DNA from: a plasmid
Length of the DNA: 64,000 nucleotides
Direction: 5' to 3' (one strand)
Sequence record: CP019900.1
A program made the position numbers and the translations under genes. The stretch's first letter is position 1; every line of letters starts with the position of its first letter. This document shows positions 63,040 to 63,545 of the stretch, in pieces. The notes under the pieces were generated by a model. That model worked only from the letters and a program-made list of their open reading frames with translations, was not told where the DNA came from and did not search any database.

Positions 63040-63545
63040 TGGGAATCCGCCCATCTTGCCGGGCGCCGCTGTCGTGTGGGAATCGGCCCACCTTGCCGGG
63101 CGCCGCTGCCGTGTGGAAATCCGCCCATCTTGCCGGGCGCCGCTGCCGTGTGGGAATCCGCCCATCTTGCCGGGCGCCGCTGCCGTGTGGGAATCGGCCC
63201 ACCTTGCCGGGCGCCGCTGCCGTGTGGGAATCGGCCCACCTTGCCGGGCGCCGGTGCTGTGTGGAAATCCGCCCATCTTGCCGGGCGCCGCTGCCGTGTG
63301 GGAATCGGCCCACCTTGCCGGGCGCCGGTGCTGTGTGGAAATCCGCCCACCTTGCCGGGCGCTGCTGTCGTGTGGGAATCGGCCCACCTTGCCGCGCGCC
63401 GGTGCTGTGTGGGAATCGGCCCTCCTTGCCGGGCGCCGCTGCCGTGTGGGAATAGGCCCACCTTGCCGGGCGCCGCTGCCGTGTGGAAATCCGCCCACCT
63501 TGCCGGGCGCTGCTGTCGTGTGGGAATCGGCCCACCTTGCCGGGT
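63040..63545. repeat. Tandem array of about 13.5 copies of a 37-bp unit (consensus TGGGAATCGGCCCACCTTGCCGGGCGCCGCTGCCGTG) with point variants
   Basis: direct reading; perfect head-to-tail periodicity of 37 bp, no spacers. Confidence 0.85.

Follow-up and report, generated by a model that had tools for sequence, protein, structure and literature searches.

The tandem array of 37-bp repeats close to one end of the plasmid DNA analysed here (64,000 nt of sequence record CP019900.1, hereafter the window) is almost certainly the 37-bp iteron region of an IncN1 replicon of the R46/pKM101/pCU1 type, that is, a series of tandem putative sites for a RepA protein of the Rep_3 family. The element is already known: descriptions of it go back to the late 1980s, and maps of IncN plasmids routinely show it. 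In the window, the array is most likely a displaced, resP-proximal piece of such a replicon, present as a passenger relic. An earlier interpretation of the same DNA, made from the letters alone (the sequence-only reading), was therefore partly supported, being right on a protein-binding array with a role in incompatibility or titration, and wrong in excluding iterons and in considering the function unknown.

Structure of the array

Tandem Repeats Finder placed the array at 63040-63544, with a period of 37, 13.6 copies, 89% matches, 0% indels and a score of 814, and gave TGGGAATCGGCCCACCTTGCCGGGCGCCGCTGCCGTG as its consensus. Cut in register, the array yields 13 complete 37-bp units, each with 0-4 mismatches to the consensus; a 14th is incomplete, comprising 24 nt and ending at 63544. 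The variable columns of the unit are 4 (G/A), 8, 9 (G/C), 14, 15 (C/T), 23, 28, 30 (C/G), 33 and 34. Each unit begins with a 19-nt core, TGGGAATyGGCCCAyCTTG, and ends with an 18-nt GC-rich spacer, CCGGGCGCCGCTGCCGTG. All core bases outside columns 8, 9 and 15 are unchanged in 10 of the 13 complete units, and the remaining three carry one core change each, at column 4 (G/A) or 14 (A/T). The core pattern TGGRAAWNNNCCCAYCT was found 14 times in the 64-kb window, always within the array, as against a mean of 0.15 matches in dinucleotide-preserving shuffles, none of which (0/100) reached 14. GC content is ~0.72 within the array and 0.40-0.45 immediately to its right. Elsewhere in the window, Tandem Repeats Finder reported GCGGCCCT at 43677-43707 (3.9 copies, 100% matches), a 16-mer at 10295-10327 (2.1 copies) and a 13-mer at 20054-20078 (1.9 copies).

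Six ORFs of 138-258 aa, three per strand, overlap one another across the array. Since 37 is not a multiple of 3 and three frames per strand are open simultaneously, these ORFs are artefacts. Unit numbers differ among plasmids by amounts that are neither integers nor multiples of 3, which also argues that the array is non-coding, and among the PLSDB matches listed almost no record annotates a gene under it. We consider its non-coding nature settled by the indivisible period, the overlapping ORFs and the near absence of annotated genes, and annotators should be warned that the six ORFs are spurious. A search of 62600-64000 against Rfam at E <= 1 gave no match.

In its description of the array the sequence-only reading was accurate. 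It had reported an exact 37-bp periodicity with about 13 units, and Tandem Repeats Finder agrees on coordinates, period, consensus and copy number; the variant positions that it named are all among the variable columns of the unit-by-unit cut. It had also placed a GC-rich block to the right of IS26 (61823-62642), dismissed the ORFs across it as artefacts of the repeat and decided against a CRISPR array, in agreement with the GC content, with the indivisible period and the overlapping ORFs on both strands, and with units that abut without spacers and have no Rfam match.

Identity as IncN1 iterons

Positions 62643-63856 align with the conjugative IncN plasmid pECSIC9 over 1,220 bp at 98.4% identity; there the array comes directly after resP and the CUP (conserved upstream repeat) repeat, on the 3' side of repA. 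The order in R46 is repA, 47 bp, 6.5 copies of a 37-bp repeat, a GC-rich CUP element of ~400 bp and the 3' end of resP. The 37-bp consensus is identical in pECSIC9, pEh25_4 and p30860-tetA, and R46 carries a close variant that is a few positions apart.

Just upstream of its repA, at L005 27554-27663 (L numbers denote the plasmid loci fetched for comparison), R46 additionally has a set of five 22-bp repeats, TGGGAATCCGCCCACCTTGTTA and variants. They adjoin an AT-rich stretch of ~80 bp and a DnaA-box-like sequence, ATATCCACA, and the combination has the layout of an iteron origin. The first 19 nt of the R46 22-mers are identical to the window 37-mer at 15-18 of 19 positions, and positions 20-22 differ. 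Core columns 8, 9 and 15, at which the window units vary, vary among the R46 origin iterons as well. Within 47 kb of R46 the core motif forms two clusters only, one of 5 copies at 22-bp spacing and one of 7 copies at 37-bp spacing, and the two lie in opposite orientation. The origin-side iterons are themselves variable in number, with five in R46 and only two in pECSIC9 (L003 ~822-865). The RepA proteins of pECSIC9 and pEh25_4 match the Pfam families Rep3_N (E = 4.8e-30) and Rep3_C (E = 1.5e-9); Rep_3 is the WH1-WH2 initiator family of the classic iteron plasmids.

The period had been held to be too long for iterons, for which 19-22 bp was given as typical. However, each 37-mer consists of the 19-nt core that it has in common with the 22-bp origin iterons upstream of R46 repA, plus an 18-nt spacer, and the 37-bp period is therefore no objection. 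Successive cores in the 37-bp array (~3.5 helical turns apart) would, by inference, face opposite sides of the helix, and the 22-bp origin repeats (~2.1 turns) the same side. The 19-22 bp rule is not general either, since the IncR repB replicon has 36-bp iterons, 10.4 copies of which are given for pST1023 in a passage of PMC9412624. These IncR iterons have a similarly long period (36-37 bp) but belong to a different initiator and replicon, and we liken them to the array by period, not by sequence.

Passages in several papers, which cite older primary work, state that the 37-bp repeats are RepA-binding sites acting in replication and copy-number control (including PMC6052338, PMC9412624 and PMC7843705), and the layout resP-CUP6-iterons I-repA is drawn on plasmid maps in PMC9769515, PMC6052338 and PMC10654068. 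The function that had been called unknown thus has a name in the literature, which knows these repeats as the IncN1 iteron regions. RepA binding sites in the IncN1 iterons were reportedly mapped by Papp and Iyer in 1995, and the IncN replicon is said to have been dissected by Krishnan and Iyer in 1990; a 1987 paper by Kozlowski is reportedly among the primary IncN papers cited for these repeats. pCU1 is said to carry thirteen 37-bp repeats, the same number as in the window, and these are reportedly dispensable for replication yet influence copy number and incompatibility.

The iterons of pCU1, R46 and pKM101 ('iteron region I / II', 'group I iterons') are the closest known system, having the same period, the same place beside CUP6 and resP and the same 19-nt core. 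The window array differs from them in being cut off from repA, with IS26 on one side, a truncating insertion with ISEc33 on the other, and F-type DNA in the first 20 kb of the window. It can also be compared with the auxiliary iterons of Rep_3 plasmids, such as incA of P1, incC of F and the extra iterons of RK2 and R6K. These likewise form an initiator-binding cluster that is separate from the minimal origin and lies across the rep gene from it, variable in number and concerned with copy control and incompatibility. The incompatibility, handcuffing or titration determinant that the sequence-only reading had offered as one form of a protein-binding array corresponds in essence to the role assigned to auxiliary iterons. 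Elsewhere, however, their usual unit is 19-22 bp, or ~2 turns, as compared with 37 bp in the window; the sequences are unrelated, and we do not claim membership.

The flanks of the array

The coordinates of the array and of the features on both sides are collected in Table 1.

Table 1. Features at and around the 37-bp array (positions in the window)
Feature	Position	Strand	Remarks
IS26, 820 bp	61823..62642	-	Transposase ORF 61875-62597 (-); lies in the 3' end of resP and bounds the IncN fragment on the left
resP remnant, last 29 bp	62643..62671	+	Ends ...IYRYTTKS*; pECSIC9 match from L002 5001, end of resP CDS at L002 5029
Terminator-like hairpin and T-run	62674..62691	+	Directly 3' of the resP stop; consensus match only
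CUP (conserved upstream repeat) element	62697..63021		By position CUP6, between resP and the iterons
37-bp array	63040..63544	+	13 complete units and a 24-nt partial unit; by position IncN1 'iteron region I', the half adjoining CUP6 / resP
Left arm of insert, 312 bp	63545..63856		Foreign to the iteron system; splits the array
Start of ISEc33 (IS630 family)	63857..64000	+	Transposase ATG at 63958; continues past the end of the window

On the left, IS26 is bounded by the terminal inverted repeats GGCACTGTTGCAAA and TTTGCAACAGTGCC and shares 99.9% identity with the copy of IS26 in R46; a transposase of the IS26 family is annotated in the 100%-identical stretch of pEh25_4. The element has removed all of resP except the final 29 bp. 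The ResP of pECSIC9, an IncN serine resolvase with the Pfam domains Resolvase and HTH_7, has a translation that ends ...MTIYRYTTKS. An IS26-bounded insertion into resP also appears in a passage of PMC7843705. The terminator-like hairpin behind resP was the only one found in 62600-64000, where shuffled sequence has a mean of 1.5, and the number is no more than expected by chance. The CUP element matches five places in R46 at 79-86% identity, among them L005 28768-29091, between resP and the 37-bp array. A comparison copy in R46 is the CUP upstream of ccgAI (L005 19332-19659; gene on the - strand at 19033-19212). Going by orientation only, the CUP6 promoter would fire on the - strand of the window, pointing away from the iterons, and would read the 3' end of resP in the antisense direction. 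On the other side of IS26, an ORF at 61201-61822 meets the left end of the element at 61823 and is apparently truncated by it. A full-length ORF of 836 aa lies at 57738-60248, and the features under plasmid matches to that part of the window include Tn3-family transposases.

On the right, the 312 bp at 63545-63856 also open the inserts of pECSIC9 and pEh25_4, with 100% identity, and that of p30860-tetA, with 99.7% identity. In all three plasmids an array A ends at unit position 24, and an array B resumes at position 24/25 after 2.7-6.9 kb, indicating that an insertion has split a single iteron region into A and B. The first 312 bp and the last 897 bp of the insert are conserved, and its middle differs among plasmids (L002 5909-8633, L001 7906-14781, L007 12906-19781): it holds a SEC-C-domain gene in pECSIC9, and the series ISEc33-cynS-carbonic anhydrase-cynR-DUF2238-IS5 in pEh25_4 and p30860-tetA. 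No terminal inverted repeats and no clear target duplication were found at the ends of the insert. Homology to pECSIC9 stops at 63856, and a transposase CDS of ISEc33 is annotated at the equivalent place in pEh25_4, p30860-tetA and a Raoultella plasmid. ISEc33 interrupts the insert at 63857, and did so later than the entry of the insert into the array.

The AT-rich stretch at 63545-63700 had been described as promoter-like. A consensus scan of 62600-64000 detected no sigma-70-like site, and the stretch is the left arm of the insertion. This arm contains two direct copies of TTTGCAnnTTACTTG(n0-2)ACC, at 63574-63594 and 63596-63613, and a perfect 12-bp inverted repeat, CCAACTAAATCT-N8-AGATTTAGTTGG, at 63618-63629 / 63638-63649; the direct copies and the hairpin, which together span 63574-63649, may serve the inserted segment as operator and terminator. 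A further motif of ~30-40 bp, beginning ATTCGGTAAAAC, recurs in direct orientation within the insert and has one copy in this arm (start at 63720-63731, full extent 63720-63759). Four copies are present in pECSIC9 (L002 6084, 7888, 7936, 8594), and three in pKP19-2796-2 (L008 6158, 7192, 8093), among cargo genes for an HNH endonuclease and an NYN-domain protein. Some copies are imperfect palindromes of the form TTCGGTAAAA-N6-TTTTnCCGAA, and the motif looks like a cassette boundary or a recombinase or operator site. It was also considered as part of the IncN CUP regulon, and rejected as such; the only near-match in R46 is unrelated, and no CUP has one nearby.

Distribution and copy number

The array matches 2,030 of the 72,556 plasmids in PLSDB, at 90-95% identity, and in 1,823 of them at least 80% of its length is covered. 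Klebsiella, Escherichia, Enterobacter, Salmonella and Citrobacter account for most of the array-bearing plasmids. Only 6 PLSDB records share the order of unit variants seen in the window at >=99% identity. The numbers of units measured in the fetched loci were 4.6, 6.5, 9.6, 13.6, 28.9 and 29.9, and passages in published papers give 3, 5, 7, 24.3 and 28-31 (including PMC9769515, PMC9412624 and PMC6052338). Two of the checks proposed with the sequence-only reading have results here: the database search gave these matches, with repA and resP as the flanking genes in R46, and copy number across related plasmids varies from 3 to 31.

In comparison with the 2,030 records that carry the array, repA is covered to at least 80% in only 903, so orphan arrays are common: repA at that coverage is missing from at least 1,127 of the plasmids with the array. 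Many of the PLSDB repA matches are 3' fragments (for example, positions 415-720) that adjoin the array.

Alternative functions for the array

Centromeres of plasmids can consist of tandem direct repeats in non-coding DNA, and a partition centromere, here a parS- or parC-like site bound by a centromere-binding protein, was among the options of the sequence-only reading. However, no par genes adjoin the array in IncN plasmids; stbABC is ~10 kb away in R46, where repA and resP flank the repeats, and the neighbours in the window are IS26 and ISEc33. The repeat core is, moreover, the same as that of the origin iterons abutting repA, and the literature assigns the repeats to RepA, which makes a centromere extremely unlikely. 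The very variable copy number, and the many arrays that sit in mosaic regions without an intact repA, would be expected of a neutral hypervariable minisatellite that has no protein partner and is kept by slippage, recombination and hitch-hiking with IS26, which had been named as the alternative to a protein-binding array. Against this stand the conservation of the core outside columns 8, 9 and 15 in most units, the identity of the array across plasmids, and its constant tie to IncN replicon DNA in the loci compared, and we regard a minisatellite as very unlikely. The long ORFs across the array might be taken to indicate a gene for a repetitive protein, and regular repeats a degenerate CRISPR-like or RNA element, but with a period indivisible by 3, three frames open at once on each strand, no spacers and no Rfam match, the probability of either is negligible.

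Displaced fragment or active replicon

The window contains the resP / CUP6 side of the IncN1 location and lacks the repA side, with the insertion and the end of the window intervening. The window ends 456 bp past the array, and a tblastn search found no IncN repA anywhere in its 64 kb. Positions 1-20000 are 92-99% identical to the leading and transfer regions of F-type Klebsiella plasmids, and the features under these matches include ParB/RepB/Spo0J, ssb, psiA, an antirestriction protein, an N-6 DNA methylase, traJ, traI and traD; a 666-aa ORF at 340-2340 lies in this part. Positions 48902-54769 are 99.4% identical over 5.87 kb to the arsRDABC arsenic-resistance operon and the adjacent recombinase gene of R46 (L005 41105-46970). 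Plasmid searches with 40000-64000 and with 1-20000 gave patchwork matches only, and no record covered 80% or more of either query. The best plasmid place, in pEC81-mcr10, is a chain of unrelated pieces. Since the array is cut off from repA by the insertion, has IS26 on its other side and shares the window with 20 kb of F-type DNA, we interpret it as a passenger relic, and it is rather probable, though far from assured, that it is an orphan in the source molecule as a whole.

The array could instead be an active part of a resident IncN replicon located just past the ISEc33 / cyn insertion, in which case the source would be an F-IncN multireplicon plasmid whose copy number the 13.6 units would continue to affect in cis. 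pEh25_4 is arranged in this way, being 100% identical to 61823-64000 and continuing with ISEc33, cynS, cynR, IS5, 29.9 units and an intact repA; it is typed IncN, and its repA lies 6.9 kb plus the 29.9 units beyond the split. pECSIC9, a conjugative IncN plasmid with the same split array, is evidently replicating. The same IS26-array-ISEc33-cyn module on p30860-tetA, an IncR plasmid, is followed, however, by 4.6 units after the insert, with no repA annotated in the 25-kb stretch examined, and on a Raoultella IncFII plasmid a second IS26 bounds the module immediately behind the cyn genes. With these examples, with the frequency of array-bearing plasmids lacking repA and with none in the window, an active resident replicon is a tentative prospect, to be taken seriously but not expected. 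The displaced piece that we favour would be inert or, at most, a sink for RepA. Its only plausible activity would be titration of RepA and incompatibility with IncN plasmids, exerted in trans or, should the DNA past the end of the window include an IncN repA, in cis.

Proposed role and implications

The mode of action of the 37-bp repeats, and their functional state in the source molecule, can be outlined by analogy with other iteron plasmids. RepA monomers would bind the 19-nt cores, and initiation would follow from this binding at the 22-bp origin cluster. The 37-bp cluster, which lies past the 3' end of repA, may act as a set of auxiliary, or control, iterons and serve as a sink for RepA. 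RepA-bound 37-bp iterons might also pair with the origin iterons ('handcuffing'), and titration and handcuffing together would limit copy number and cause incompatibility with other IncN1 plasmids. Handcuffing is a general model for iteron plasmids; to our knowledge, it has not been demonstrated for IncN.

The presence of orphan IncN arrays on F-type, IncR and other plasmids raises the question of whether they are retained as an incompatibility weapon that titrates the RepA of incoming IncN1 plasmids. The same IS26-array-ISEc33-cyn module is found on three unrelated backbones with 9.6 to 13.6 units. Hitch-hiking with IS26 and the adjoining cargo explains the orphan-array counts equally, and we consider selection as a weapon unlikely.

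The array marks IncN-derived DNA in a window that starts with 20 kb of F-type DNA, and so helps to reconstruct the assembly of this mosaic by IS26. If an orphan block of this kind does cause incompatibility with IncN1 resistance plasmids, it would bear on the coexistence of plasmids in clinical strains.
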